From positions 156,870 to 220,869 of the forward strand of contig VMFR01000002.1 of the NCBI GenBank assembly GCA_007376135.1: a stretch of 64,000 nt of DNA, written 5' to 3'. The translations under genes were made by a program, and so were the position numbers. Under the pieces are notes generated by a model. The model saw nothing but the letters and a program-made list of their open reading frames with translations. It was not told where the DNA came from and did no database searches. Below are positions 3,554 through 51,468 of the stretch, piece by piece. Within the stretch, counting starts at the first letter, position 1. Every line of letters starts with the position of its first letter. This DNA is from Parcubacteria group bacterium Gr01-1014_31 (lineage in GTDB: Bacteria; Patescibacteriota; Patescibacteriia; Buchananbacterales; GWA2-38-13).

Positions 3554-4228
3554 ATGCTGGAAGCTATCAAAGACCGGGTCTGGCGGGCCTGCCAACGGCT
3601 GGTGGTCGTCAACCTGGTCATCCAAACCGAAGGGAACGTGTCCGAGCGCACGCCGGATGGGCGGTTTTTCGTCATCAAACCCTCGGGCGTGCCATACGCC
3701 GAGCTGCAGCCCGACCATTTCGTGGTGGTGGACCTGGAGGGCCGCGTTCGGGAAGGCAAGCTCAAGCCATCCACCGACACCCCGACGCATCTTGAGATCT
3801 ACCGCCGCCGGCCGGACATCGGCGCCATCTGCCACACCCATTCACCGTACGCGTCCGCCTGGGCGCAGATGGGCACGCCGCTCCCCTGCTTTGGGACGAC
3901 GCATGCGGACGCGTTCGGCGGCGCCGTGCCCGTCACGCGATTGCTGACGCCCGCTGAAGTGGTCGAGGGTTACGAGCGCGCCATCGGACGCGTGATTTCC
4001 GAGGTTTTGCCGCCGACCGCGCGTGCGGTGCTGGTCGCCGGCCATGGGCCCTTCGCGTTCGGCGAGAATGGGCTGGAGGCGGTGCGCTACGCCGAGATCC
4101 TGGAGAAGGTTGCGATGATGGCGACGGTCAATCCTCCCGCCCGGCCGCTGCCCGCCCACATTCTGCGCAAGCACTACGACCGCAAGCACGGCGCGGGCCG
4201 CTACTACGGACAGGAGGTTGAACGGTAA
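3554..4228 (+). CDS. Class II aldolase/adducin-family protein (L-ribulose-5-P 4-epimerase / L-fuculose-P aldolase-like)
   Basis: GNVSER, IKPSG and HTHSPYA motifs typical of the AraD/FucA fold. Confidence 0.75.
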   Translation: MLEAIKDRVWRACQRLVVVNLVIQTEGNVSERTPDGRFFVIKPSGVPYAELQPDHFVVVDLEGRVREGKLKPSTDTPTHLEIYRRRPDIGAICHTHSPYASAWAQMGTPLPCFGTTHADAFGGAVPVTRLLTPAEVVEGYERAIGRVISEVLPPTARAVLVAGHGPFAFGENGLEAVRYAEILEKVAMMATVNPPARPLPAHILRKHYDRKHGAGRYYGQEVER

Positions 4229-4271
4229 ATACATAAGGTGCCATGCGAGCGCACGGCACCCCGGTCGCCGC

Positions 4272-4961
4272 CTAACGGGCGGCTATTTTTTTTACTATCA
4301 TCATTGGTTCCCGTGGCGCGCCGGACGGTATCACCAAGTCGGCGGCGGAAAAATTTTGCCCTTCGGTCAGCACGCTGGGCAGGGCGACGACCCGCAGGCC
4401 GGCGGCATGCGCTGCCGTGACGCCGTGCTCGGTATCCTCGAACGCCAGGCACTCGGCCGCGGGAATACCCAGTTGCCGGACAGCCTCTAGGTAGAGGTCG
4501 GGCGCGGGTTTACGCTTCAGCCCGGGATAATTTTGGAACGCGACGACAAATTGGAAAAAACCTGTCAGTCCTGCCGCGGCGAGATTTTCATCCGTGTCCT
4601 GCTGGATGGAGTTGGTCGCCGCAATACGCGGCATCTTCGGATAGGCGCGGGCAAAATTCCGTGCCAGCGCGACGTTCTCCGCCAGGACCGAAATGCCGCT
4701 TGACCGCAGCTGGCGGTAGATTTCGCGCCGCCGCAGGTTGAGCGCTGCATGGTCGCCGCTCATTTGTTTGCGGGTGCAGATGTCGGCCATGTTCTCGGTG
4801 CTCCCGCGCCCAATGAAGGGCAAGTATTCTTCCAGGGCCAGCGTCGCGCCGTGCTCGGCCAGTAGTTTCTGCCAGGCGGAAAAATGCAGTTGTTCGGTGT
4901 CGACCAGCACCCCGTCGATGTCGAATACCAGCGCTTGGACTGTACCGCTTGCCTTGGTCAT
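4272..4961 (-). CDS. HAD-IA family hydrolase (beta-phosphoglucomutase-like phosphatase)
   Basis: FDIDGVLVDTE motif I, a downstream K and a DD motif. Start set at MTKASG. Confidence 0.75.
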   Translation of the reverse strand: MTKASGTVQALVFDIDGVLVDTEQLHFSAWQKLLAEHGATLALEEYLPFIGRGSTENMADICTRKQMSGDHAALNLRRREIYRQLRSSGISVLAENVALARNFARAYPKMPRIAATNSIQQDTDENLAAAGLTGFFQFVVAFQNYPGLKRKPAPDLYLEAVRQLGIPAAECLAFEDTEHGVTAAHAAGLRVVALPSVLTEGQNFSAADLVIPSGAPREPMMIVKKIAAR

Positions 4962-6874: not shown

Positions 6875-7654
6875 ATGCGCTTCGACATCATCACCATTTT
6901 TCCGAATCTCTTTGCTTCCTATCTGGAGGAAACTATCATTGCGCGCGCCATCCGCAAAAAATCGCTGCGCGTGAATCTGGTGGACCTGCGCCGTTTTGCG
7001 AAAGCTGGCGACGCCCACCGCAGCGTGGACGGCCGTCCGTACGGCGGCGGACCGGGAATGATACTCATGGTGGAACCCATCGCTAAAGCCCTTCGGGCTT
7101 TACGAATCAAGAATCAAGAATCAAGAATCAAGGGATCGGATTGGCCCACCGCCTCTCCCCTTGTGGGAGAGGCCCGCCGCGGGGTGAGGGGGCGATCGAA
7201 GGCCCGCGTTGTGATGCTCTCTCCTGATGGCAAGCCATTCACCCAGCGGGAGGCCGAACGGTTGAGCAAGTACGACCGTCTTGTTCTCCTCTGCGGACGT
7301 TACGAGGGGTTTGATGCGCGCACGGTTAAACTTGTGGATGAGAAGCTTTCCATCGGCCCGTACGTGCTCGCCGGCGGTGAATTGCCCGCGATGGTGGTGC
7401 TGGAAGCCGTGGCGCGGCATGTGCCGGGCGTGGTCGGGCACCCCGAGGCGCTGAAGGAGGAAACTTTTTCCCAGGGTATGGACTACGTCGAGTATCCGCA
7501 GTACACGCGCCCGGAAAAATTTGTTCCGGCGGGTCTTCGACTCCGAGGCTCAGACTCGAGGAGCAAGCGTGGGGCGGCATGGCGCGTGCCAAAAATTCTG
7601 CTCTCCGGCGACCACAAAAAGATTGCCGCCTGGCGGCAGGCAAGGACCAAGTAA
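6875..7654 (+). CDS. trmD: tRNA (guanine37-N1)-methyltransferase TrmD, with two in-frame low-complexity insertions
   Basis: MRFDIITIFP..., YGGGPGM and LLCGRYEGFD motifs. An insertion of roughly 20-35 aa between PIAKAL and MLSPDGKPF is encoded by the tandem repeat (gaatcaa)x4 plus a palindrome. Confidence 0.9.
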   Translation: MRFDIITIFPNLFASYLEETIIARAIRKKSLRVNLVDLRRFAKAGDAHRSVDGRPYGGGPGMILMVEPIAKALRALRIKNQESRIKGSDWPTASPLVGEARRGVRGRSKARVVMLSPDGKPFTQREAERLSKYDRLVLLCGRYEGFDARTVKLVDEKLSIGPYVLAGGELPAMVVLEAVARHVPGVVGHPEALKEETFSQGMDYVEYPQYTRPEKFVPAGLRLRGSDSRSKRGAAWRVPKILLSGDHKKIAAWRQARTK

Positions 7655-7792
7655 TGGTTGTCAATATCGCCCCGGGAAGCCCGGGGGCGTTCTTATTGAC
7701 GCGGCACGGCGGCCCTGCTAAGGTAGGGCCGTTTGTCGTTTCTTCGTGTTCCTTGAATTTCACAACAACCTCTTTGAAGGGAGGATATCCGC

Positions 7793-9330: not shown

Positions 9331-9700
9331 GGGAGCGTTTAAAATCGCTAACGTTCACAACCGGCGCCTAACTGTTTCCACAGCTCCCGACCGCGACGGA
9401 TTGCGGTGCAGGAAAAACAGTGGCATCTGATAGCGGAGACCGTGGCGTAACTGCCAAACCCTCCGCCGCCCTATCAGGTTCCTCTGTTTTTTCTTCACCC
9501 AAAATGGTGAAGGAAAACGGACGTTGACAACTGAAACGTGGTAGGAACAACCACTGTTGTCCCGCTTCGGCGGGGCAACAGCCTACAGTCAATTCCTTTT
9601 TTGTCGGCTCCCATCGGGGGCCGGCAGAGGCTGGTTTCTGAAGCTATCTTTCAGCCTGCTTCGCCACTCGGCGAAGCTATCAATAAAAGAGCTTTCACTT

Positions 9701-11190
<1,490 letters not shown>

Positions 11191-11315: not shown

Positions 11316-11345
11316 CCCCGCCAGGTGGCGGGGTTTTTGTTATAT
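11316..11345 (+). terminator. Rho-independent terminator after the 16S
   Basis: aaaaccccgccaggtggcggggtttttgtt. Confidence 0.55.
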
Positions 11346-12263
11346 GTTTTTGGCGTCTTTTAGAATGTCTTTTTGGTACCTTTCTAAGAAAGGTACCCCC
11401 AAAGTCGCGCCCCGTGTTCGGAAAGTAGAAAAAATCAGGCTCGCTCGTCGTAAAATCGCTATGCGCAAGATTTGCCGCGCCCCGGGGACGGACAGGCGCC
11501 AGACGTTTTTTGGCAGCAGCATCCAGGACGCCGCGCTGATACGATAGCCGGAAGCCTTGCGGGTCAACCCTGACGTTTCTAGTCGCCGGGCAATTTCCGC
11601 GCGGGTGTAGTACTTCAGCACGTTGGGCGGACGCCTGCCGCTGAGCGCATTGAGCGCGCGCGTGGGCCAGAACGCCGGGCAGTACCGGTTGGGGAACGAT
11701 GCGTCAAAGATGAACGCACCGCCCGGTTTCAGCACGCGGGCAATTTCGTGCAGTGTCCGCTGGACAAACTGCTTGCCCATATGGAGAAAGACCGCGGAGG
11801 ACAGGCACAGGTCAACGCTGTCGTTCGGCAGGGGCAGCGCGTCTGCCGAACCGCAGATGAGGGAATACTGGGCGCTGGGGAAGATGGCGAAGGCCGCGCG
11901 GTAGCGCAAAAAATGCCGCAGCATAGTTTCGGCGATATCCACCCCGAAGTAGCGGTCGCAGGTCAGCTTCTTTTCGCGGGAAAGGTAGAGCGGGATGCGC
12001 CCGTAGCCGCAGCCGATCTCCAGCACGGTGCCGATGTGCTGGTCGGACGGAAAGCGCTGCCACACCTCCCCTATTTTTCCCGCCAGCGTGGCAAAGTCCT
12101 CTCGGCCGTCGCCGGTTGTGGCGATAGCCGACCGCACGTGGTCGAAAGCTGCTTCCTGTTCCCACTGCTGCCGGTAGGCGGACACGGGCGCGCCGTCGCG
12201 GGGGAAGTAGATGCCGTCGCGAGTAGTCCAATCGTTGAGCAAAGCGTTGGCCATGTTGCTCAT
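11340..12263 (-). CDS. Class I SAM-dependent methyltransferase
   Basis: Motif I LEIGCGYGR and motif post-I VDIAE. Start set at MSNMANALL (cat at 12261-12263); the longer ORF to 12926 is upstream read-through. Confidence 0.7.
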   Translation of the reverse strand: MSNMANALLNDWTTRDGIYFPRDGAPVSAYRQQWEQEAAFDHVRSAIATTGDGREDFATLAGKIGEVWQRFPSDQHIGTVLEIGCGYGRIPLYLSREKKLTCDRYFGVDIAETMLRHFLRYRAAFAIFPSAQYSLICGSADALPLPNDSVDLCLSSAVFLHMGKQFVQRTLHEIARVLKPGGAFIFDASFPNRYCPAFWPTRALNALSGRRPPNVLKYYTRAEIARRLETSGLTRKASGYRISAASWMLLPKNVWRLSVPGARQILRIAILRRASLIFSTFRTRGATLGVPFLERYQKDILKDAKNI

Positions 12264-12341: not shown

Positions 12342-13733
12342 ATGGTCACCTCTGCCAGCGATATTCCGAAAAATTCGGCGCTTTCTGCCGATCTGTGCAT
12401 CATCGGTTCCGGTCCGGCGGGGTTGTCGCTGGCGCTGGAGTACAGGGGCCGGGGCGAGAAGGTCTGCGTCCTGGAAGGCGGCGAGCGGGAGCCGAATGCC
12501 GACGCGCAAGCGCTGAACGATTTGGAAGTGGACGCCCAGCCGGTTTCCCTCAAATCGCGGCTGCGCGTACTGGGCGGCACGGGCAAAGCGTGGCGCGGGC
12601 TGTGGAAACCGCATGATGCAATAGATTTTTCGGCGCGGCCGTGGGTGCCCCAGAGCGGGTGGCCGTTTTCGCGGGAAACCGTGGCGCCGTACTACGCGCG
12701 CGCGGCAAAATTGTTCCATGCGCCGGCGGCGGCCGACTTTCCCGCCGGCGGCCTCCTGGATTCTCCGCGGCTGGCCACAGCTCCGCTGTTCCGGCTGCAG
12801 GACGCGGATTTGGACCTGGCGGCCAAGTACGGGCCGGAGCTGGAACAGTCGAAGAATATCACGGTGTACGTGGGGGCAAACGTCGTGCGGCTGCAAACTG
12901 ATGGCAACGGTGTGCACGCCGCGCACGTTGAAGTCAGGACTTTAGGCGGCAACGCGTTTACCGTTGCGGCAAAACAATTCGTTCTCGCTTGCGGCGGGAT
13001 TGAAAATGCGCGGCTGTTGCTCCACTCCCATGTCGGCAACGGAAACGTCGGCGCATATTACCAGGATCACCCGAAGGGCGTTTGCGGCGTACTGACGGCC
13101 AGCAAACCGGTCCGCTGGCCGGCCTACTGGGGGAAAAATTCCGGTGTGTGGTGGATGAAGGCCGGGCTGCGGCTGCCGGATTCCGTGCAGCAGCGCGAGC
13201 AGGTACTCAACAGCTTCATTACGCTGGAGCCGGAATTCGGCAAACTCGGCAAATTCGGGAAAAAGTACCTCGGACATACGCCGGCGGTCCGAATCATCCG
13301 CGTTCGCAATTATCTGGAGCAAGCGCCCGTTTCCGGCAATCGCGTGACGCTGAGCGGCAAGGTTGACCAATTTGGCAACCCGATTGCAAAGATCACCTGG
13401 TCGCTGTCGGAGTTGGATAAAAGAACAATGGTTGTTTTTCACCGCATCCTTAAAGAAGAGTTTGCCGCCCGCGGTATCGGCAAGTTCCGCAGTCCCCTGC
13501 TTGATGGCGGCAAGGATTTTCCGGTCTTCACGGACGCATCGCACCACATGGGTACAACCCGCATGGGGACCGACCCGCACACTGCCGTCGTGGATGCGGA
13601 CTGCAAACTCCACGGCGTGGACAACGTCTTTATCGCCGGCAGCTCGGTCTTCCCGACCAGCGGCTACGCCAACCCGAATGCGACGATTGTTGCGTTGGCC
13701 ATCCGGTTGGCAGACTATCTAATTAGAACGTAA
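12342..13733 (+). CDS. GMC-family FAD-dependent oxidoreductase
   Basis: N-terminal Rossmann motif DLCIIGSGPAG and C-terminal GMC signature (H...GTTRMG...VVD...HGV.N.FIAGSSVFP). Confidence 0.8.
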   Translation: MVTSASDIPKNSALSADLCIIGSGPAGLSLALEYRGRGEKVCVLEGGEREPNADAQALNDLEVDAQPVSLKSRLRVLGGTGKAWRGLWKPHDAIDFSARPWVPQSGWPFSRETVAPYYARAAKLFHAPAAADFPAGGLLDSPRLATAPLFRLQDADLDLAAKYGPELEQSKNITVYVGANVVRLQTDGNGVHAAHVEVRTLGGNAFTVAAKQFVLACGGIENARLLLHSHVGNGNVGAYYQDHPKGVCGVLTASKPVRWPAYWGKNSGVWWMKAGLRLPDSVQQREQVLNSFITLEPEFGKLGKFGKKYLGHTPAVRIIRVRNYLEQAPVSGNRVTLSGKVDQFGNPIAKITWSLSELDKRTMVVFHRILKEEFAARGIGKFRSPLLDGGKDFPVFTDASHHMGTTRMGTDPHTAVVDADCKLHGVDNVFIAGSSVFPTSGYANPNATIVALAIRLADYLIRT

Positions 13734-13868
13734 TAATTTTATTTTATGTGGGATTTTATTCGGAGCATGAAATATTATATTTTAGGTCTCTGATGGTTCG
13801 ATTGAAATTGAAGATTTTGGAAGAATTGATAGTAACTCTGTTCAGATGGTTGAGAAAATAAAGGATTT

Positions 13869-14456
13869 ATGATTTCCTATTCGATTCCAAAATCTCCTAG
13901 TGATAATTTATTCAATAAAAAGGATGGGAAGAAGACTCCCATTGTATCAATATTATCTTTATTGGTTTCTTTTGGAACCCTAGTTTTTGTTTTTTATAAC
14001 TATTTTTTTCTTGAGCGTGCACAAATAGGTTTAAAAGATTATAAAGTAATTAGAATGGATGATGAGGGGAAAACCAGGTACCAGATAACTTATAAATTAT
14101 CAAATTATGGGAAAGTATCGGCCAGCGATGTGTCATTTAAAATATACGCAATGACTATTAATGATGATAGCTTTAAAAAAATGATATGGTCAGATAGTAT
14201 AGTCAGCATCGTTGTCCCCGGGGCAGATTTCCCTTTTGGTGTAGATACCTTGGACTTCAGCCCAGATAACCTTGGGAAGAGCATGGCGCTGATTTTTGAT
14301 TTTGAATTCAATGATACGATGTTTTCCAGAAGAAAATCGCAGTTGTGGTTTAGGTATCAGGCAGGAACTGTGGGGGACAACGTGTTATTTTATTTACTTG
14401 AGAGTGAACGAGATAAAATTATGGAAAAATATAAAGAATTAAAGACCACACAGTAG
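13869..14456 (+). CDS. Hypothetical membrane-anchored protein encoded in a low-GC island
   Basis: AT-rich codon usage in an otherwise 65% GC window, with an N-terminal TM helix. No recognizable domain. Confidence 0.5.
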   Translation: MISYSIPKSPSDNLFNKKDGKKTPIVSILSLLVSFGTLVFVFYNYFFLERAQIGLKDYKVIRMDDEGKTRYQITYKLSNYGKVSASDVSFKIYAMTINDDSFKKMIWSDSIVSIVVPGADFPFGVDTLDFSPDNLGKSMALIFDFEFNDTMFSRRKSQLWFRYQAGTVGDNVLFYLLESERDKIMEKYKELKTTQ

Positions 14457-14547
14457 TAAATCATTGAAATAGTTCCAGCCGTTTGACTCCCCCAACTGTC
14501 CAGTAGTACGTTGCAACCGTGAGGGGTTAATACCTAATTTTCGTCTT

Positions 14548-15261
14548 ATGCGTCCCACAACAAAACGGCGAGCCGTGGTTATCTCGCTAGTAGCAGGGCT
14601 ATCAGTTGGTACTTTCGCCCTCGCGTCGCACCTCTCCGTTGAAGCGGAGAAGTTTTTTCAAAAAACCTGTACCCGATTAGATATAAAGGGTATTAACGCC
14701 TTTGTTTGCGATTTGCGCGAGAGACTCGACGCGCTCACCGTCCGCGTCGACAACATTCCCGCCGGCCCGCAAGGCGAACCGGGTCCCGCCGGATCACCAG
14801 GGCCGCAGGGACCCGCGGGTGCTGGACTTGTTGTGAAAGATGTCAACGACGTCGTTATTGGTCCTCTCGTCCAAATTGAAAATAATCAACTTCTCATTTG
14901 GAAACCGAGTATCCAAAGAGTGATTGAGCTTAACCCGGTTCTTGAAGAAACAACGGTCTTACATTCATTTGGTGTTGTACTTAGTTACGAGTCTAATGAT
15001 TGTACGGGAAACCCGGTGTGGGGCGAGGGGGCGATTCTCCGCGCCGACTATGATGTAGCGAATCCTCCAAGCCAGGAAGGGTGGACCAAAATGCATGCTA
15101 CCGATATCGTTGTGCAGGTTATTGTTAATAGTGAATGGAATAATGTGAGTCGAACCTGCACCGCAGTCCCTGGAAAAATTCTTGGAACAGCTGGGTTGAT
15201 GGTTGAAGGACCATTCGGTGGGGTGCCATATACCGGTCCACTTAAAATTGTTGAGGAATAA
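14548..15261 (+). CDS. Collagen-like triple-helix repeat protein (signal-anchored, Gly-X-Y run, C-terminal globular domain)
   Basis: GPQGEPGPAGSPGPQGPAGAG G-X-Y repeats and an N-terminal hydrophobic segment. Low GC. Confidence 0.6.
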   Translation: MRPTTKRRAVVISLVAGLSVGTFALASHLSVEAEKFFQKTCTRLDIKGINAFVCDLRERLDALTVRVDNIPAGPQGEPGPAGSPGPQGPAGAGLVVKDVNDVVIGPLVQIENNQLLIWKPSIQRVIELNPVLEETTVLHSFGVVLSYESNDCTGNPVWGEGAILRADYDVANPPSQEGWTKMHATDIVVQVIVNSEWNNVSRTCTAVPGKILGTAGLMVEGPFGGVPYTGPLKIVEE

Positions 15262-15278
15262 GGTAAAATAGTACATTA

Positions 15279-15312
15279 TCAACCCCCGCCCTCGCCGGCG
15301 GGGGGTTTTGTT
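15279..15312 (+). terminator. Rho-independent terminator
   Basis: aacccccgccctcgccggcgggggttttgtttt. Confidence 0.55.
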
Positions 15313-15356
15313 TTATTGCGAGTGCTAAATTCTTTTTTGTACGGTAAAATCAGGCC

Positions 15357-17126
15357 ATGCGTATTAGCTGGTTTTCCAGTCAACAATCGCGAAACACCCT
15401 GCTGGTAATTTTGGCTGTTGCCGCAGTATTGCGGTTCTGGAACCTCGGCGGGCCGGATATGGTGACCGACGAGGTGTACTACGCGCTGCGGGGTATTGGA
15501 TATTTGGATTACATCGGTTCCGACCTGCAGTCCACCCCCTTGTACTGGTTCAATCCCCTGCCGGCGTGGACGATGCTGTCTATGCACGACCACCCGCCGC
15601 TGGTGTTTTTGGTCGCCAATCTCTTTTTCAATCTCTTTGGCGTGTCGGTGCTGGTGGCGCGGCTGCCGTTTGCGCTGGCCGGCCTTGGGTCGGTGTTGTT
15701 GGTCTATCTCATTGGCCGTAAGATGTTTTCCGAACGGGCGGGGCTTGTCGCCGCTGCCGTGATGGCCGTGTCTAGCCACGCGGTGTTTGCTTCGCGCACC
15801 GCGCTGATGGAACCGATGGCCATCGTGCTTATCCTGCTGACGTGGTTCGTTTTTTTACTGGCACTGGAAAATCCAAAGTGGTTTCCGTGGTGGGGCGCTG
15901 TTTTGGGTTTGAGTTTTCTTGCCAAGTACACGGCGTTCCCGGTGTTAGCGGTTTGTGTTGCCTACCTGGCGTTGTTTCGGCGCGACATTTTTAGATTGCG
16001 GAAATTTCACGTCGGACTGTTTGCAGTCCTCGCGGTTTTCTCTCCCGTCATCATCTACAACGTGATGCTGTACCGCACCACGGGACATTTTGATTTGCAG
16101 TTTGCGGCCCTCTTGAAACAACAGGTGCCGGAGTGGCAGCTATTGGCAGAAAAGATACCGACCAGTTACTGGGATAATTTCATCGGCATCTTCCGCGGGC
16201 TGGTGGACGCGTACTCGCCCCTGGCATTGGGGTTGGCGGCGATCGGTCTTGCCTATTCGTTTTTGTCATTCCGGCCCCGGAGCCGGAATCCAGTAACCCC
16301 ACCGGTTTCTTTGAGCGAAAAAATCGGCTTTCTGGATTCCCGCCTTCGCGGGAATGACGAAAGTGCCAACCACATTTTGTTATTACTATTTTTGGTCGCC
16401 TACACGCTGCTCTTGGTTCTTATCAAGCCCCTGCCGCGGTTCCTCTCCTACTACCTACTGGTGTTCCCGCTGGCAAGTGGTGCGGCGCTCACCGCAGCAT
16501 GGCAAGCTAAGCGCGGGCTGGAGCAGTATGCGCTGCTTGGGCTTGTGGCGTTGGCCGCAATCTACGAACTGGGCTTTTCCGTGAATACCAATCTGGTGCC
16601 GTTTTCCTATGGCGCACCCAATCTCGCTTGGTCGCTGGTGCGGCCCTACACCTCGGACTTTGGCATTAACGCCCTGGACCGCTGGATAGATAAGGAATTG
16701 GCAGGGAAAACTTCCGCGGGCGTACCGCAGACGGGTACTGTGCCGCTGGACGCGGCTATCCAGCGTAATGCCGAGCGGTACGGCCGCGGCAAGCAGCAAG
16801 CCAAAGTACTGCTGGTCTATGATACTCACTTGCACGAGACTATTACGTTGTGGGTATTTGACCGCCGTTTCATCTACCAGGGATTTCCGGCGTACTATGC
16901 AGACGAATTTTCCGACACGGTTGAAAAGGAAGGCGCCGAAAAATTCAAGGGCTATACCATTTATTATGTTACGGGCACCGAGTACAGCCTGTGGCGGCAG
17001 CGCGGTACGGTCAGCGCGGCGGCGATGAAACTGGAAAAGAAACTCGTCGGCCAAGGGTTCTCCCCCACTCCCATCACCAACAGCGTCGGCCTGCCGGTGT
17101 TCAAGGCGTATCGGTTCGGGTTGTAG
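15357..17126 (+). CDS. GT39/GT83-superfamily polytopic glycosyltransferase (ArnT/PMT-like, undecaprenyl- or dolichyl-phosphate-sugar dependent)
   Basis: About 12 TM segments and an N-terminal DE/YY...G motif (VTDEVYYALRG). Overall topology is typical of the ArnT/PMT_2 family. Confidence 0.65.
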   Translation: MRISWFSSQQSRNTLLVILAVAAVLRFWNLGGPDMVTDEVYYALRGIGYLDYIGSDLQSTPLYWFNPLPAWTMLSMHDHPPLVFLVANLFFNLFGVSVLVARLPFALAGLGSVLLVYLIGRKMFSERAGLVAAAVMAVSSHAVFASRTALMEPMAIVLILLTWFVFLLALENPKWFPWWGAVLGLSFLAKYTAFPVLAVCVAYLALFRRDIFRLRKFHVGLFAVLAVFSPVIIYNVMLYRTTGHFDLQFAALLKQQVPEWQLLAEKIPTSYWDNFIGIFRGLVDAYSPLALGLAAIGLAYSFLSFRPRSRNPVTPPVSLSEKIGFLDSRLRGNDESANHILLLLFLVAYTLLLVLIKPLPRFLSYYLLVFPLASGAALTAAWQAKRGLEQYALLGLVALAAIYELGFSVNTNLVPFSYGAPNLAWSLVRPYTSDFGINALDRWIDKELAGKTSAGVPQTGTVPLDAAIQRNAERYGRGKQQAKVLLVYDTHLHETITLWVFDRRFIYQGFPAYYADEFSDTVEKEGAEKFKGYTIYYVTGTEYSLWRQRGTVSAAAMKLEKKLVGQGFSPTPITNSVGLPVFKAYRFGL

Positions 17127-24182: not shown

Positions 24183-24259
24183 GGGCGCGTAGCTCAGTTG
24201 GTTAGAGCGCGTCACTGATAATGACGAGGTCCCTGGTTCGACTCCAGGCGCGCCCACCA
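24183..24259 (+). tRNA. tRNA-Ile (anticodon GAT), CCA encoded
   Basis: Cloverleaf gggcgcg/cgcgccc acceptor, anticodon loop cTGATaa, T-loop ttcgact, discriminator A + CCA. Confidence 0.85.
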
Positions 24260-32577: not shown

Positions 32578-35295
32578 ATGGAGGGAATGCCCCAGCCGAC
32601 GCCGATGCCGCCCGTTCCGCCACGACCGGTCCAGCGAATACCGACCGCTCCGCCCGTACCGCAGTCCTCACCCGCCCCAAGACGTTCGCATCGGGGTTTG
32701 GTGGTTATCGTGTTGGTGTTGTTGTTTTTGGTCGCGGCGGGCGCCGTGGCTGCGCTCGGGTATTTTGGGGGGTGGTTTGGCCCCAAAAAGACTTCTCAGC
32801 TCTCGGATGACGAGATCCTTTCACGGGCGCTGCAGATGCTGCCAGAGATCAAGTCCGGCTCGGTTCGGTTTGACATCGGGTTCAAGTCCGAACCGCGCGA
32901 TGAGGGGGCAAAACCCATTACCGATGAGATTCCAGGCCTGGAAGAGCGGCGCAAGGCGAGAAATCGTGATGGCGAACGGCTGCAAGATATCCAGCGGTTG
33001 ATGTCCTCGCTGCGCGTTCGTAGCCGAAGTTCGACGAGTCCTTCCGCGAGCACCGGGGTGCAACCCAGCTACCCGCAGACTTTGGATGAGTTCGTGCTTG
33101 ACCCGGAAACGCGTACCGATCCCAGCGGCGGCAGCTATCGCTACAGCAGCAGCGGCAGCGATTTCTCGCTCGCTTTCCGCCTGGAAACTTCATCGGCGGT
33201 GGCCTCCTGGAACAAGCAACTGGATGGTACGCGCACCTACGGCAGTACCACCGCCGCCCCGCCGCGGGCCGTTGTAAATCAGGACATCACCCTGACGGCG
33301 GCGCATGAGACCCCATACGTGTATCTGGGCAGCGACGGTCTGGACCCGCTGGCGATGTTCGATAGCGACAGCCTGGATATGTACCAGTGGCTGCCCAGCG
33401 ATCTGGATACTTCATTCAACATTTGGAGCGATTTCCAGGCGCCGTCGGCCGACGGCAAACCGAGCAACGCATCCGCCGGGCTCGGCGCGAAGGTCGCGAT
33501 GGGCGCGTTCACCTTCGCTGGCAGCGGGGAGGTCCGCAAGGTTGGTGAAGTAATGTACGGCCGCGTCAACGAGTTTCCGGCACTTGGATTTTTCGACCTC
33601 AATGCCATCAAAGGCAAGTGGGTCGCGATGACCGAGGAAGATCTCATCGGCAGCGGCTTGGCCGTCAATTTCGCCGAGGTCAAAGAGGAGGTTTCTAAAG
33701 AGAACGCGACGGCCGTCAAGCAGTACCAGCTGGCGATCGCCTTGGCGCGCGAGCAGGGCGTGCTGAGCATTGAGCAGGTCCTGCCGATGACCGAAGAGAA
33801 CGGCGTTCGCTACCACCACTACCGGTTGAAGTTCGATCGCACGAAGTTCGTCGGTTATTACCAGGCGCTGGCGGAGCGTTCCAAGGCCGAGTTCGGCAAC
33901 GACGCGGTCGTGAAATTCAGCCAGGAGGTCGTGGATTATCTGCAGAACGAGGACTTCGCGCTCGCCTACGATGCTCTGGCGAAGAACACCGCTGCGGAAG
34001 TCTGGGTGCAGGAAAAGACCTATCTGCCGCGACAACTCGCATTCAGCGTCCGTCTGGTGCCGCCGGATGCGGCCATCAAACACGCCGGCAAACAGTTCAA
34101 GCTCAAAACGTCGGTGACGCTGGACAAGGTCAACCAGCCGGTGTCGGTGGAAGCGCCGTCCCCCACCATCAGCGTGGATGAGGCCACGGGGCTAGTTACT
34201 GGGCAGTCGCCGGCGCAGATCGTGCTCCAGCGCCAGATTCGCAACGTGGAGGCCATTCGCACGGCGTTACGGAAGTACCGCCAGCATGCCGGTGCCTATC
34301 CCGAGACGCTTACCGACTTGAAGCGTAAGCCGAGCGAGGTCCCACGCGCGACTCCGACTCCTAAGCCGGCTCGCGGCTCGCTGCAGGAAACCGTGAATAT
34401 TGGACTCCAGTACGGTACGGTCGTGGGGTTTGGCGGAACAGAAGATTGGGAGGAGCCGAGCACCAAGAACGACGCACCCTTCCTCAAGGTTATCCCGAAT
34501 GATGTCTACACCAAGCAGCCGTATCCGTACCAGCGCGATGGCGAGGGATACACGGTCAAATACCAGGTCCAGCTGGTCAAGGATGAAAACTCGGAGCGCA
34601 GTCCGTGGTCGTCGTATGCGCAGTACGTGGAAGGAGAGAATACCGCCGACCAGAGTTCTCTCTCGCGGGAGCAGGAAACGACCGAGGACAGCGATCATGA
34701 CGGTTTGAGCGACCGGCAGGAGCGGGATGTCTATGGCACAAGCCCGTATGATGACGACACCGACAACGACGGCTTCAAGGACGGCGTGGAGGTGCGCGGT
34801 GGCTATAACCCCAAGGGTGACGGTCGGCTGCAGACAGGGCAAACCCAGCCGGAAACCTCGTTGTCGGGAGGTACGACATCGGTGACCATGCGTGACCGCC
34901 AGCGCGTGTCCGACATGAAGCAGCTGCAAACGGCGTTGGAGATCTACTTCAACGACAAAGGCGCCTACCCGCCGGAATCCGGCGACGGTGAGATCGGCAA
35001 CCCGACCAACGGGTTCGGTTGTCTTGGTGATCTTGGTTGGGAGCAGGATAATATGTGTGCGTCACCGATTTACATGGGGTTGACGCCCCATGATCCGAGT
35101 ACCACCGTCGCTAACCCGGGGAATGACAATCCTTGCAAAACGGAAGGTGTGTTGCCGTGCAACTATTCCTACAACCAGTTGTCGGGAAACACTTACGAGA
35201 TTCATTTTCGACTGGAGGCAAACACCGGCGGCCTGAGCAGCGGATTGAACTGCGCTTCCGAGGCAGGCACAAGTAGTAAAGGATGCGTCCATTAG
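32578..35295 (+). CDS. Large signal-anchored surface protein with two internal type-IV-pilin-like head domains and Asp-rich Ca-binding (thrombospondin-type-3-like) repeats
   Basis: Pro-rich N-terminus then a TM helix. Two pilin-like segments (IVLQRQIRNVEAIRTALRKYRQHAGAYP and MRDRQRVSDMKQLQTALEIYFNDKGAYP) and DSDHDGLSDRQERD...DDDTDNDGFKDGVE repeats. Confidence 0.6.
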   Translation: MEGMPQPTPMPPVPPRPVQRIPTAPPVPQSSPAPRRSHRGLVVIVLVLLFLVAAGAVAALGYFGGWFGPKKTSQLSDDEILSRALQMLPEIKSGSVRFDIGFKSEPRDEGAKPITDEIPGLEERRKARNRDGERLQDIQRLMSSLRVRSRSSTSPSASTGVQPSYPQTLDEFVLDPETRTDPSGGSYRYSSSGSDFSLAFRLETSSAVASWNKQLDGTRTYGSTTAAPPRAVVNQDITLTAAHETPYVYLGSDGLDPLAMFDSDSLDMYQWLPSDLDTSFNIWSDFQAPSADGKPSNASAGLGAKVAMGAFTFAGSGEVRKVGEVMYGRVNEFPALGFFDLNAIKGKWVAMTEEDLIGSGLAVNFAEVKEEVSKENATAVKQYQLAIALAREQGVLSIEQVLPMTEENGVRYHHYRLKFDRTKFVGYYQALAERSKAEFGNDAVVKFSQEVVDYLQNEDFALAYDALAKNTAAEVWVQEKTYLPRQLAFSVRLVPPDAAIKHAGKQFKLKTSVTLDKVNQPVSVEAPSPTISVDEATGLVTGQSPAQIVLQRQIRNVEAIRTALRKYRQHAGAYPETLTDLKRKPSEVPRATPTPKPARGSLQETVNIGLQYGTVVGFGGTEDWEEPSTKNDAPFLKVIPNDVYTKQPYPYQRDGEGYTVKYQVQLVKDENSERSPWSSYAQYVEGENTADQSSLSREQETTEDSDHDGLSDRQERDVYGTSPYDDDTDNDGFKDGVEVRGGYNPKGDGRLQTGQTQPETSLSGGTTSVTMRDRQRVSDMKQLQTALEIYFNDKGAYPPESGDGEIGNPTNGFGCLGDLGWEQDNMCASPIYMGLTPHDPSTTVANPGNDNPCKTEGVLPCNYSYNQLSGNTYEIHFRLEANTGGLSSGLNCASEAGTSSKGCVH

Positions 35296-48017: not shown

Positions 48018-48512
48018 TTAAGCGGCAGGAGGCGGCGGCGGTGCCGTGGGTGCTCCTTCGGCCGACGGTTTGGCGTTGACGATCTTGGGGGCGCCGGCAG
48101 CCTCCATTTCCTTGTAGATGGTGCCAAGGACCCCGTTGACGAATTTTCCGGAGCTTTCGCCCCCGAACGTTTTCGCCAACTCGATCGCTTCATTGATGGC
48201 GACCTTGGCCGGGATCTCGACGTCGTGCTGCAGTTCGTAGATGCCGATGCGCAGGACGTTGCGGTCGACGTTGGTGATCTGCTCCAGCGGCCACTCGGGC
48301 GCGTGGTCGACGATCTCCTTGTCGATGGCGCTCCGGTTGGCGGCTACGCCGGCAACGAGCCGTCCCGCAAAACCACCATCATCAAAATCCGGCGCGAACT
48401 CGAGAAAGTTGCGCGTCAGCATGTCGGACAGCTGGTCGTCCGGCTTCCCGTTGAAGTCCCACTGGAACAGCGTCTGCAGGGCGATCGTGCGGGCGAGGTG
48501 GCGGTTGGACAT
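48018..48512 (-). CDS. nusB: Transcription antitermination factor NusB (with Pro/Ala-rich C-terminal tail)
   Basis: [14 protein letters not shown]...ILRIGIYEL NusB fold motifs. Confidence 0.85.
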
Positions 48513-48542
48513 AGACGGGAAAGGGCGACTCGGTGATAGTGG

Positions 48543-48776
48543 TTAGCCTTTGGCCGGTGCGGCCTCGGTCGACTGGCCTTTTCGCGGTTTGGCGGCTTTC
48601 ACTTTTGCCGCGATGACCTGGCGGCCGCGGTAGCTGCCGCAGAAGCGGCACGCCTGGTGCGGCACCGTGGGTTTTCCGCAGTTGCTGCAGCGGGTGAGCA
48701 CCAGCGCGGGGATCGCGCGATGCGCCCAGCCGCGACGTTTTTTTGAACGGGAACGGCGTTTGCCTGGAATGGGCAT
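48543..48776 (-). CDS. rpmF: 50S ribosomal protein L32 (extended C-terminus)
   Basis: Basic N-terminus plus a CxxCG...CxxCG zinc ribbon (CSNCGKP...CRFCGSY). Confidence 0.75.
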   Translation of the reverse strand: MPIPGKRRSRSKKRRGWAHRAIPALVLTRCSNCGKPTVPHQACRFCGSYRGRQVIAAKVKAAKPRKGQSTEAAPAKG

Positions 48777-48857
48777 GGGAAATTCTCCTTAATCATCCGT
48801 CGCCCCGCGAGATCAGGGGAGCAGATTACCGTAGTATAGACAGATTTTGTTGGATTT

Positions 48858-48971
48858 GGCAAGCCCCGTAGGACAACGGTCGATGCCATTATGGATGGGC
48901 CTCTGGTAGTGCCGGGCGGACCGCGGAGGTTCCCTGTCTCCGGAAGTCCGTTGTCCTACGGGGCAAGCCCC
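48858..48971. repeat. Intergenic element R3: TIR ggcaagccccgtaggacaacgg ... ccgttgtcctacggggcaagcccc enclosing a ~68-bp core; lies between gyrA and rpmF
   Basis: See R1 and R2. Confidence 0.65.
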
Positions 48972-48990
48972 GTCCTTCCGGTGGCGTGCC

Positions 48991-51468
48991 TTACAGCAGC
49001 GTGACCGAAGCCACCCGGTCGTCCTCTTCCTTGAAGCGCATCAGCCGCACGCCTTGGGTGGCGCGGCCCAGCACCGAGACCGAATTGAGCGGCAGCCGGA
49101 TGACCTGTCCCTTGATGGACACGATGATGAGGTCGGCTTCGACGGACTGGCTGTTGACCACGATGGCGGACACGATGGGGCCGGTTTTCGGGGTGATCTT
49201 GGCCGTCTTGATGCCGGAGCCGCCGCGCCCCTGCGTTTTGTAGGCCTTGAGCGTGGAGCGCTTGCCAAAGCCGTGCGCCATGACCGTCAGGAGTTGGCCG
49301 ACATTGACCAGCGCCGGGTCGATGACGTCCATACCGACGACGGTGTCGTTCCCCTTGAGTCGCAGGCCGCGTACGCCGCTCGCCGGCCGGCCCATCGGGC
49401 GCAGCTGCCGTTCGGGGAAGCGGATGCTTTGCCCTTGGGCTGTCACCAACAGGATGCTGTCCTGCCCGCTGGAGGGTTTGACCCAGTCCAAAATGTCGTC
49501 CTTGTGCAGGCGGATGGCGATCAGCCCGGAGCGGCGGACATTGACGAAGTCGTCGAGCGACACTTTCTTGATCTGCCCCCTGGTCGTGACCATGACCAGG
49601 AATTTCGCTTCGTCCTTTTCCGGCATGGGCAGGGCGGCCGAGATGCGTTCGTTGGGCCCCAATTGTAGGAAATTGACGATGGCGGTTCCCCGCGATTGCC
49701 GTGAGGCTTTGGGAATTTCGTAGGCCAAGAGCTGGAAAACGCGGCCGCTGGAGGTGAAGAAGAGGATGTTGGTGTGGGTTGTCGTCGAGAAGAAATGGGC
49801 GACAAAGTCCTCGTCCTTCGTGGCCAGGCCGATGACCCCCTTGCCGCCGCGTTCCTGCGTGCGGAAGGAGTCTGGCGGCAGCGCCTTGATGTAGCCGTTG
49901 CGGGAAAGCGCGATGATGACGTCCTCATCGGGGATGAGATCTTCCTGGGTGAATTCTTTGACCCCGTGCGCGACCACCTGGGTGCGGCGTGCGTCGCCGT
50001 ATTTTTCTTTCAACGCTTTGAGCTCGTCCTTGATGATGCCGGTGATGCGCGCCGCCGATTTCAGGATCGCTTGCAGCTCCTTAATGAGGGCCAGTTTGGC
50101 TTTCAATTCCTGTTCGATCTGCAGGCGTTCGAGGTTGGCCAGTTGCTGCAACCGCATCTCCAGGATGGCAACCGCCTGCCGCTCCGAGAGCTTGAAGCGT
50201 TTGATGAGGTTGATCCGGGCTTCGTCCTTGTCCTGGGATTTCTTGATGGTGGCGATGATCTCGTCGATCTTGGCCAAGGCCAGCTTCAAACCCTCCAAGA
50301 TGTGGGCGCGCTCCTCGGCACGCGCCAGGTCGTAGGCGGTGCGCCGCTTGATGACCTCGCGACGGTGCTTAAGATATTCTTCCAGGATGGCCTTGAGCGT
50401 GAGCACCCTCGGTTGGATGCCGTCCACCAGCGCCAGCAGGTTGACGTGGTAGGTTTCCTGGAGCTGGGTGTGCTGGTAGAGCTGGTTGAGCACCTTGCGC
50501 GGGTAGGCGTCCTTTTTGAGCTCGATGACGACGCGCAGGCCGCCACGTTCGGACGACTCATCGCGCAAGTCGCGGATGCCCTCCATTTTTTTGTCCTTGA
50601 CCAGTTCGGCGATCTTTTCCAGCAGCATCGCTTTGTTGACCATGTAGGGGATCTCCGTCACCACGATGTGGTGGCCGTTCCCTTGTTCGATGATCTCGGC
50701 CTTGGCGCGGGTGACGATCGCCCCCTTGCCGGTCGCGTATGCTTGTTTGATCTCGCGTTTATCAAAGATGGTCCCACCCGTCGGGAAGTCCGGCCCCTGC
50801 ACGTACTGCATCAAGCCGTCGACGGTCGCGTCCGCGTGGTCGGCCAGGTGGATGGTGGCATCCACGACCTCGCTCAGGTTATGCGGGGGAATGTTGGTCG
50901 CCATGCCGACGGCAATGCCGGTGGAGCCGTTGAGGATGAGGTTGGGCAGCCTTCCGGGCAGCACGGTCGGCTCCTGGTGGGTGCCGTCGTAGTTGGCCAC
51001 GAAGCTGACGGTTTCCTTGTCGATATCGACCAGCAGCTCTTCGGCGATGCCGGCCATTTTGGCCTCGGTGTACCGCATGGCCGCGGCCGAGTCGCCATCC
51101 ATCGAGCCGAAGTTACCCTGTCCCGCCACCAGCGGGTAGCGCAGCGAGAAATCCTGCGCCATGCGGACGAGTGAATCATAGACGGCGATATCGCCGTGGG
51201 GGTGGTATTTGCCGAGACATTCACCGACAATGGTCGCTGATTTGCGGAATTTGGACCCCGGACGCAGACCCAGCGTCCACATCGCGTAAAGCACGCGCCG
51301 GTGCACGGGTTTCAGGCCGTCGCGCACATCCGGCAGCGCGCGCGCGATGATGACGGACATCGCGTAGTCGAGATACGATTCCTGCATCTCCAGCTCGATC
51401 GGGCGCGCCTGGACCGAGATCCGTTCAGGCGCGGCGGGCGGCGGGGTGGTTTTTTTCGTTGGGGCCAT
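48991..51468 (-). CDS. gyrA: DNA gyrase subunit A
   Basis: [24 protein letters not shown], active-site Tyr region and C-terminal beta-pinwheel repeats. Confidence 0.95.

Follow-up and report, generated by a model that had tools for sequence, protein, structure and literature searches.

When GC content falls abruptly over two adjacent genes of a GC-rich genome, were the genes acquired together, or do they have separate histories? This question is raised by a 1.6-kb stretch (positions 13735-15330) in the genome of Parcubacteria group bacterium Gr01-1014_31, a metagenome-assembled genome (MAG) from groundwater that belongs to the candidate phyla radiation (CPR). We analyzed it within a window of 64 kb (60.8% GC), by which we mean the whole stretch of DNA under study. 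Two genes on the plus strand are involved, ORF1 (195 aa, 13869..14456) and ORF2 (237 aa, 14548-15261), whose products are exact matches to the deposited hypothetical proteins G01um101431_686 and G01um101431_687. An earlier note, made from the sequence alone, had placed both on one low-GC island, likely a recent horizontal acquisition or a remnant of a phage receptor-binding module. Our analysis favors another answer: the stretch is probably a hypervariable accessory surface-protein locus, in which a slot for foreign cargo adjoins ORF2, a resident gene for a collagen-like fiber with an exchangeable head.

Two Grades of Anomaly at One Locus

The compositional anomaly comes in two grades: the block at 13734-~14487 is strongly foreign, and the head domain of ORF2 is mildly shifted toward AT. 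GC content falls sharply at the stop codon (13733) of the GMC oxidoreductase gene that forms the left neighbor (12342-13733, plus strand), to 28.1% in the spacer at 13734-13868 and 34.4% in ORF1. The third-position GC content (GC3) of ORF1 is 0.357, against 0.735 in the GMC gene and 0.70-0.74 in neighboring genes, and this synonymous-site composition supports a foreign origin for ORF1. Similarly, 700-nt sliding windows over 13701-14500 have a tetranucleotide deviation of 0.905 against a mean of 0.381 (sd 0.068), which is the highest value in the 64 kb and puts the ORF1 block ~7.7 sd above the mean. ORF2 is 50.6% GC overall, with 52.8% in residues 1-72, 77.8% in its GXY run and 45.8% in the head.

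These measurements redraw the island that had first been described. A low GC content of ~35-40% is a fitting description of the foreign block (28-34% GC) but not of ORF2 or of the entire flagged range, which is 42.2% GC. Of the two abrupt switches placed at 13735 and 15262, the left one is indeed sharp, the insert beginning at the GMC stop codon or a few codons from it, but the right edge really lies at ~14487, where the window becomes alignable with its relatives. The flanking genes do encode a GMC oxidoreductase and a glycosyltransferase (PMT_2 by Pfam), at 61.1 and 55.9% GC rather than the ~65% given for both. The single island call had thus lumped together two genes, one truly foreign and the other resident, if mosaic.

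A Recurrent Site of AT-Rich Cargo

The insert (13734..14487, plus strand), delimited by composition and by alignment with relatives, occupies a variable slot, which we compared between the window and two related loci, L001 and L009. In both relatives the DNA directly upstream of the ORF2 homolog belongs to an AT-rich gene unrelated to ORF1: L001 retains the 3' end of one such gene (1-211, 35% GC), and L009 carries a 224-aa gene (205-879, 36% GC) that is unrelated to the L001 gene as well and has no significant match in Pfam, PHROG or PADLOC (best PADLOC NsnC, E = 0.03). The DNA of the three loci can be aligned only from ~55-60 nt before the ORF2 ATG (~14488), and blastn with the DNA upstream of ORF2 gave 84% identity to L009 from 14499 and 76% identity to L001 copy B, one of two tandem homologs there, from 14482. 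To judge from this conservation, 14488..14547 (plus strand) is the fixed right-hand anchor of the cargo slot and would hold a putative promoter and a short leader; by eye, the region upstream of ORF2 reads TTGCAA, 16 nt, CCTAAT, a candidate promoter that the promoter-scan tool did not report. Next to one and the same right anchor, each of the three genomes has a different AT-rich cargo, and the site is therefore one of repeated insertion or replacement.

An assembly chimera or strain-mixing artifact could in principle produce a low-GC block of this kind, given that the genome is a MAG and that the relatives' contigs break here (those of L001 and L002 begin 278-285 bp before the ORF2 homolog, and that of L009 ends inside it). 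This explanation is barely credible, however. Over GMC-ORF1-ORF2-PMT_2 the sequence is the same (100% identity) in three independent assemblies, represented by the NCBI MAG contig from which ORF1 and ORF2 come (300 kb), the ENA contig k139_644634 (288 kb) and a Logan contig, so the junctions are not chimeric; moreover, within single contigs the DNA to the left and right of the insert has the composition of the host.

No integrase was found among the genes around the locus, nor any convincing flanking repeats, and the nearest tRNA gene to the insert is at 24183. Two further candidates were set aside: a template repeat of the diversity-generating retroelement type for the ORF2 head, as the island has no repeat copy elsewhere in the window, and a 3' remnant of PMT_2 upstream of the L009 cargo gene, which amounts to just a 33-nt match that lacks protein-level support and is unproven. 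The locus shows, at single-gene resolution, a high-GC CPR genome gaining AT-rich foreign genes at one recurrent spot, and doing so without visible mobile-element machinery.

ORF2 Is Not a Recent Arrival

The ORF2 family is small, comprising P0002-P0008 and a second copy in L001; one related locus was sampled from a scan of one genome per GTDB species and three from a metagenome scan, a thin sample of relatives. The closest relative is L001, whose flanking proteins are 85-94% identical to those of the window and whose gene order runs from two tandem ORF2-family genes through Amidase_3, PMT_2 (86%), a TPR protein, a pilin-like gene and DUF4340 (85%) to ABC_transp_aux (94.5%). Over its first 285 nt, ORF2 matches L001 copy A at 87% identity, a level like that of the flanking genes, and the N-terminus of the L009 homolog is 85% identical. 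Overall, the N-terminal part of ORF2 and ~60 nt of upstream DNA have 84-87% identity to the relatives, which equals that of the flanks. Given the homolog at the syntenic site in L001, ORF2 is therefore not a recent arrival.

The proposal of a recent horizontal acquisition thus holds for ORF1, on its composition, its family and the slot that it occupies, and fails for ORF2. The comparison of presence and absence that the earlier note had suggested separates the two genes in the same way, with ORF1 replaced by unrelated genes in L001 and L009 and ORF2 retained in L001; conservation at this position, which was to speak against recency, was found for ORF2, in one close relative only. As for a single acquisition of the entire stretch, the head of ORF2 is indeed below the genome in GC, and the family is patchy and found at another chromosomal site in distant relatives. 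Such an event does not, however, sit well with the N-terminal part and upstream DNA, whose conservation in the syntenic relative equals that of the housekeeping flanks, nor with two halves that differ in GC (34% vs. 51%).

In more distant relatives (L011, L013, and L014) the ORF2-family gene lies beside gyrA, so the gene itself has moved over longer time. At L013 (1726-4687) it shares the interval from gyrA to L32/NusB with HATPase_c/DUF4325 and 126-aa genes, which are AT-richer; in the window (48018-51468) gyrA, L32 (rpmF) and NusB are direct neighbors. The gyrA-rpmF/nusB interval seems to be a second site at which this clade inserts accessory genes, and these shifting positions make the family part of the accessory genome of the clade.

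Some details of the related loci may be added. The tandem pair of L001 (279-2372) has near-identical N-terminal modules and unrelated C-terminal ends, and the Amidase_3 gene that follows it is absent from the 64-kb window. An apparent inversion of a 359-aa ORF next to the distant homolog P0007 proved to be a gene-calling difference only, the DNA of L004, L005 and L006 being identical. The P0007 genome (L004/L005) also holds a 171-nt direct repeat (4206-4375 and 7614-7783, 82% identical), each copy of which spans a 52-aa ORF.

Predicted Architecture of the ORF2 Fiber

From hydropathy and heptad analysis, ORF2 is predicted to start with a constant module of signal or anchor and coiled coil (14548..14763). 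The basic sequence MRPTTKRR precedes an 18-residue hydrophobic segment, ending in ALA followed by SH, which would serve as a Sec signal or, if uncleaved, as a type II anchor. The coiled coil comprises a perfect 3.5 heptads, whose a/d positions (I46, I49, V53, L56, L60, L63, V67, and I70) are conserved in the family alignment and end 2 residues before the first Gly of the GXY run; helices are predicted by AlphaFold2 (AF2) at residues 5-27, 31-41, and 49-68. The earlier reading of G-X-Y repeats followed by a C-terminal domain is borne out. The collagen-like stalk (14764..14826; GPQGEPGPAGSPGPQGPAGAG) spans residues 73-93 in seven uninterrupted triplets, the homologs having 8-16. While ORF2 scores 13.3 bits against Pfam Collagen PF01391 (gathering cut-off 27.2), L001 copy B reaches 30.4 bits, and P0002, P0004, P0006, and P0007 carry a precomputed PF01391 annotation.

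The 144-aa head (14827..15261) is beta-rich, contains the motifs VxDxxGxxIG and DC[TS]G, and closes with the tail PLxIVEE. Heads of all family members have no match in Pfam, and that of ORF2 none in PDB profile or PDB single-sequence searches; the AF2 model of ORF2, built on an 8-sequence alignment, is unreliable (pLDDT 53.5), and Foldseek gave no hit at E <= 0.001, as expected from a poor model. Two conserved cysteines lie in the N-terminal part (Cys41 and Cys54) and two in the head (Cys152 and Cys204), and these four positions, together with the N-terminal signal, suggest that the protein is extracytoplasmic.

Collagen trimers are classically nucleated by a coiled coil that abuts a GXY run, and at the sequence level ORF2 has such a predicted non-collagen trimerization domain adjoining its collagen-like region. 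Trimerization and display on the cell surface would be consistent with this layout. A juxtamembrane trimerization sequence in transmembrane collagens is reportedly the topic of work named in the reference list of a review. For the bacterial Scl proteins, N-terminal domains that nucleate trimerization ahead of the collagen-like region have been documented (PMC8968730).

Evidence for Exchange of the ORF2 Head

The two ends of ORF2 have different closest relatives. In its N-terminal part, ORF2 shares 87.5% identity with the syntenic homolog P0003 and 72.2% with P0002, whereas its head is 34.1% identical to P0003 and 47.2% identical to P0002, which indicates head swapping. C-terminal ends of at least three unrelated kinds follow the ORF2-type N-terminal module, namely the DCTG-type head, a second coiled coil with a Pro/Thr-rich linker and a different head (L001 copy B), and a Cys-rich end (P0007). 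Conversely, a profile of the head alone finds P0008 (31.4 bits), whose pre-collagen region cannot be aligned with the N-terminal module of the family; P0013, with a different N-terminal region, is marginal against this profile (21.3 bits). The head of ORF2 is AT-shifted (GC3 0.396) and that of L001 copy A is near host GC. Together these patterns point to heads exchanged on a constant module of predicted anchor and trimerization functions, with the GXY run as the likely joint, although the divergence of the ORF2 head may also have come about by fast evolution alone. A link of the head to the SLH-anchored proteins P0009 and P0012 was rejected, P0009 scoring 8.6 bits in the head-only search and the original hits having been driven by GXY.

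Resemblance to Phage Fibers

A collagen-like stalk with a variable C-terminal head is also used by phage fibers, and ORF2 shares with phage tail fibers (PHROG 14726, 5073, 6320 and others) a constant N-terminal module, GXY repeats, an exchangeable head and mosaic evolution. Its matches to PHROG tail-fiber families are weak (E 1e-3 to 1e-1), however, and cover only residues ~66-102, which is the GXY run. Scans of IMG/VR with the ORF2 family alignment and with ORF1 returned zero relatives, and tblastn of the ORF2 head and ORF1 against the 50,697 phage genomes of INPHARED, a form of the comparison first proposed for the C-terminal domain, likewise found none (best E 0.5 for the head). Moreover, no phage, integrase or transposase genes were called in ~12.6 kb around the locus, and phage genes flank neither this locus nor those of the relatives, whose contexts are chromosomal. 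The constant part is a predicted signal or membrane anchor, not a virion-attachment domain, which suggests display on a cell rather than on a virion.

On this evidence and that of synteny, we regard it as very unlikely that all 1.6 kb arrived recently as a single island or are what is left of a phage receptor-binding (tail-fiber) module. The phage remnant that had been suspected finds no counterpart in viral homologs, phage genes or phage-like folds; the comparison of architectures survives as an analogy, a constant part with an exchangeable head, but not as a statement of descent. ORF2 resembles receptor-binding proteins in design only.

ORF1 and Its Mobile Family

ORF1, which is preceded by an AAGGA ribosome-binding site 5 nt upstream of its start, had been read as membrane-anchored, and one hydrophobic helix at residues ~25-48 agrees with this. 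A confident AF2 model from 14 sequences (pLDDT 83.3, pTM 0.70) places a Lys-rich tail before the transmembrane (TM) helix at 25-48, followed by seven strands at 53-164 that form an Ig-like beta-sandwich and by a C-terminal helix at 178-194. An exhaustive HMMER search of 1.84 billion representatives found a family of 28 proteins (E <= 1e-3, 170-320 aa), of which a word-indexed search with ORF1 had found one homolog; the named members come from Patescibacteria or from MAGs classified no further than 'bacterium'. In the family alignment a variable tail is followed by the TM helix, a beta-rich domain with N-x-G-x-x-x-A and, at the end, the helix YLLESExxKIxxKY, which is conserved.

The genes of this family are 30-35% GC in hosts of ~29, 34, 42, 48, and 61% GC, and their neighborhoods differ at every locus examined: one lies with a GIY-YIG gene and two membrane proteins, another adjoins an HNH_3 gene, a third belongs to an island of two DNA methylases, Vsr, HNH, Peptidase_S24 and HicAB, and a fourth adjoins Peptidase_C39 and DnaK. 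A gene that is AT-rich in each host examined and changes its neighbors in this way behaves as a horizontally moving accessory gene.

ORF1 has no match in Pfam, NCBIfam, PADLOC or PDB sequences, and its best PHROG match (E = 0.014) is unusable; in PADLOC, neither ORF1 nor ORF2 has a match even at E <= 1. Foldseek against PDB and BFVD returned just generic proteins with a TM helix and an Ig-like sandwich (TM-scores <= 0.49), and the fold matches to KirBac, ApaG, arrestin and an archaeal pilin were rejected as too generic for family membership. Our best guess at its function, a tentative one, is a surface-exposed envelope protein in exclusion or defense. One version of this guess makes ORF1 a 'moron'-type defense or superinfection-exclusion gene that blocks phage adsorption or DNA entry, with the slot as a defense hot spot. 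As a single-gene AT-rich cargo in a variable slot, ORF1 would fit such a role; the family member in the two-methylase island stands with Vsr, HNH, an S24 repressor-like gene and HicAB, others stand by HNH or GIY-YIG genes, and the best viral fold matches are phage 'transmembrane proteins' with a TM helix and a beta-sandwich (TMq 0.49, E = 1e-4). Nevertheless, the lack of PADLOC hits, the generic nature of the Ig-like folds, the absence of homologs from the phage genomes searched and the position of other family members among housekeeping genes make it rather unlikely. This reading is compatible with a variable surface-protein locus and bears on the function of ORF1 only.

Alternatively, ORF1 and ORF2 might be a functional, co-transcribed pair, with ORF1 as membrane platform, chaperone or anchor for the fiber. 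The genes lie on the same strand, 91 nt apart, with no terminator predicted between them and a strong one only after ORF2 (15283..15314, plus strand; a predicted intrinsic terminator with an 8-bp all-GC stem followed by a T-run), and both proteins are predicted to face the membrane exterior. The two are not found together elsewhere, however: relatives hold unrelated genes at the ORF1 position, one of them without a TM segment by eye, ORF1-family genes at five other loci have no ORF2-family neighbor, and the ORF2 homologs in L004, L011, and L014 have no ORF1-family neighbor. In addition, ORF2 retains its own conserved upstream region, and we consider a dedicated pair highly improbable.

A Model for the Locus

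In the model that we favor, of a variable cargo slot beside a resident fiber gene, the slot between the end of the GMC gene and the ORF2 promoter region would have taken up a ~750-bp AT-rich segment with ORF1 alone. Most likely, the cell would have taken up foreign DNA, which then recombined with the conserved flank as its anchor; the rare, always AT-rich ORF1 family moves among Patescibacteria genomes. By the positive-inside rule, ORF1 would be a single-pass protein that exposes its Ig-like beta-sandwich outside the cell. ORF2, a gene resident in the lineage and specific to it, would encode a homotrimeric fiber that is secreted or anchored in the membrane. Its N-terminal signal or anchor would place the protein outside the cell, where the membrane-proximal coiled coil of 3.5 heptads would nucleate a short collagen triple helix, and this stalk would present a disulfide-bonded, beta-rich head. 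Whereas the anchor and coiled-coil module would stay constant, stalk length and head would be exchanged between lineages by module shuffling. The head would probably be the ligand-binding end, so that ORF2 could attach the episymbiotic cell to a host or a surface; alternatively, ORF2 might be a surface target under pressure from phages or hosts.

Several points weigh against this model. The left flank of the slot is invisible in the relatives, whose contigs stop at the locus, and no recombinase, repeats or other insertion signature accounts for the entry of cargo. The synteny of ORF2 is seen only in L001, and the ORF2-family gene adjoins gyrA in the more distant relatives. Trimerization and surface exposure of ORF2 rest on sequence prediction, its AF2 model is poor, and seven GXY triplets would make a very short triple helix that is maybe just marginally stable. 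The low GC of the head could stem from fast, AT-biased evolution rather than exchange. Lastly, the function proposed for ORF1 depends on the generic fold matches described above.

Comparison With Known Collagen-Like Proteins

The streptococcal proteins Scl1 and Scl2 resemble ORF2 in having an N-terminal signal, a trimer-nucleating N-terminal non-collagen domain, a GXY stalk of variable length, a variable globular domain and display on the cell surface (trimer nucleation and display being predicted for ORF2). Their polarity is the reverse, however: Scl has its variable head at the N-terminus and an LPXTG anchor at the C-terminus, whereas in ORF2 anchor and coiled coil are N-terminal and the head is C-terminal. 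ORF2 ends in PLKIVEE, has no LPXTG anywhere, scores 11.6 bits against NCBIfam SclB (cut-off 325), and has no sequence similarity to Scl outside the GXY run.

The order of parts in the exosporium protein BclA of Bacillus and Clostridioides is that of ORF2: targeting depends on a short region at the N-terminus, the collagen-like stalk varies in length, and a beta-rich head forms the C-terminus. BclA is, as ORF2 would be, a glycoprotein-type surface fiber, but it has a C1q/TNF-like jelly-roll head and lacks a TM segment or coiled coil; ORF2, in contrast, has a predicted signal or TM segment and a predicted coiled coil, a head without Pfam or PDB match, and a host that is a CPR bacterium rather than a spore former. 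The Legionella protein Lcl is a secreted collagen-like adhesin with a variable number of repeats and a C-terminal domain. It is the best NCBIfam match of ORF2, but at 16.2 bits (cut-off 500) over residues 59-91 only, and ORF2 is not a member.

Closest in layout and presumed folding logic are collagen XIII, MARCO and SR-A. These eukaryotic type II transmembrane collagens and class A scavenger receptors have a cytoplasmic N-terminus, a TM segment, a trimer-nucleating juxtamembrane coiled coil, a collagen stalk and a C-terminal ligand-binding head. The likeness does not go beyond analogy: the sequences are unrelated, ORF2 has a far shorter stalk (7 triplets), and its head is unrelated to SRCR domains. 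What is new here is a bacterial collagen-like surface protein with reverse polarity to Scl, beside the undescribed small family of ORF1.

CPR or Patescibacteria are thought to live attached to other cells, and to our knowledge few of their surface molecules for attachment and host range have been identified; a full-text literature search found no paper on collagen-like proteins in this group. ORF2 is plausibly an adhesin of an episymbiotic CPR bacterium, and its family, with a constant anchor and trimerization module and swappable heads, offers a concrete, testable adhesin candidate. That the neighboring PMT_2 glycosyltransferase modifies the ORF2 fiber is speculative. A fuller conjecture, which we think quite unlikely, would make the ORF2 family the host-attachment fiber of an episymbiotic Parcubacteria clade, a trimer anchored in the membrane and modified by PMT_2, with an exchangeable head setting host or surface, and the slot a landing pad for mobile envelope or defense genes, the whole being a 'surface-identity' locus that varies by cassette exchange.

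Genomic Setting of the Locus

The neighbors of the locus are the GMC oxidoreductase, PMT_2, DUF4340 and ABC-transport auxiliary genes, a methyltransferase gene and a 16S rRNA gene. PMT_2, a membrane glycosyltransferase of GT-C type (15357..17126, plus strand; Pfam PMT_2 7.6e-27), is followed on the minus strand by the DUF4340 gene and then the ABC_transp_aux gene. On the other side, the gene table lists the methyltransferase at ~11340-12260 on the minus strand.

Next to this gene, on the opposite strand from it, the 16S rRNA gene (9695-11188) is complete (1482 bits) and solitary, with zero matches to 23S or 5S rRNA in the entire 64 kb, and the rRNA genes are therefore unlinked at this locus. 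Between the 16S rRNA and methyltransferase genes, the independent ENA assembly of this organism (L020 3438-3600) has 163 additional bases relative to the window at ~11469, the two sequences being 100% identical elsewhere; the extra bases reflect either a discrepancy between assemblies or an indel between strains.

The PMT_2 coding sequence contains two short palindromic units (16265-16293 and 16333-16361) that resemble repetitive extragenic palindromes (REP) or miniature inverted-repeat transposable elements (MITE) and read GTCATTCCGG...CCGGAATCCAG and CTGGATTCCCGCCTTCGCGGGAATGAC. They are in frame, in a loop of the glycosyltransferase, and encode ...FLDSRLRGNDE.... Similar units are found in L001, where one is intergenic (3662-3694, 94% identical), and in L011 (792-826). 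The unit is a dispersed short repeat that has landed within the PMT_2 gene.

Finally, the pilin-like gene that L001 carries between its TPR and DUF4340 genes encodes a 174-aa N_methyl protein, to which the window has a match of 65% protein identity at 34890-35292, in the C-terminal part of a 905-aa ORF (32578-35295). The pilin-like module therefore lies elsewhere in this genome and is fused to, or embedded in, a much larger ORF; the matching segment is among the lower-GC spots of the window (~51%).

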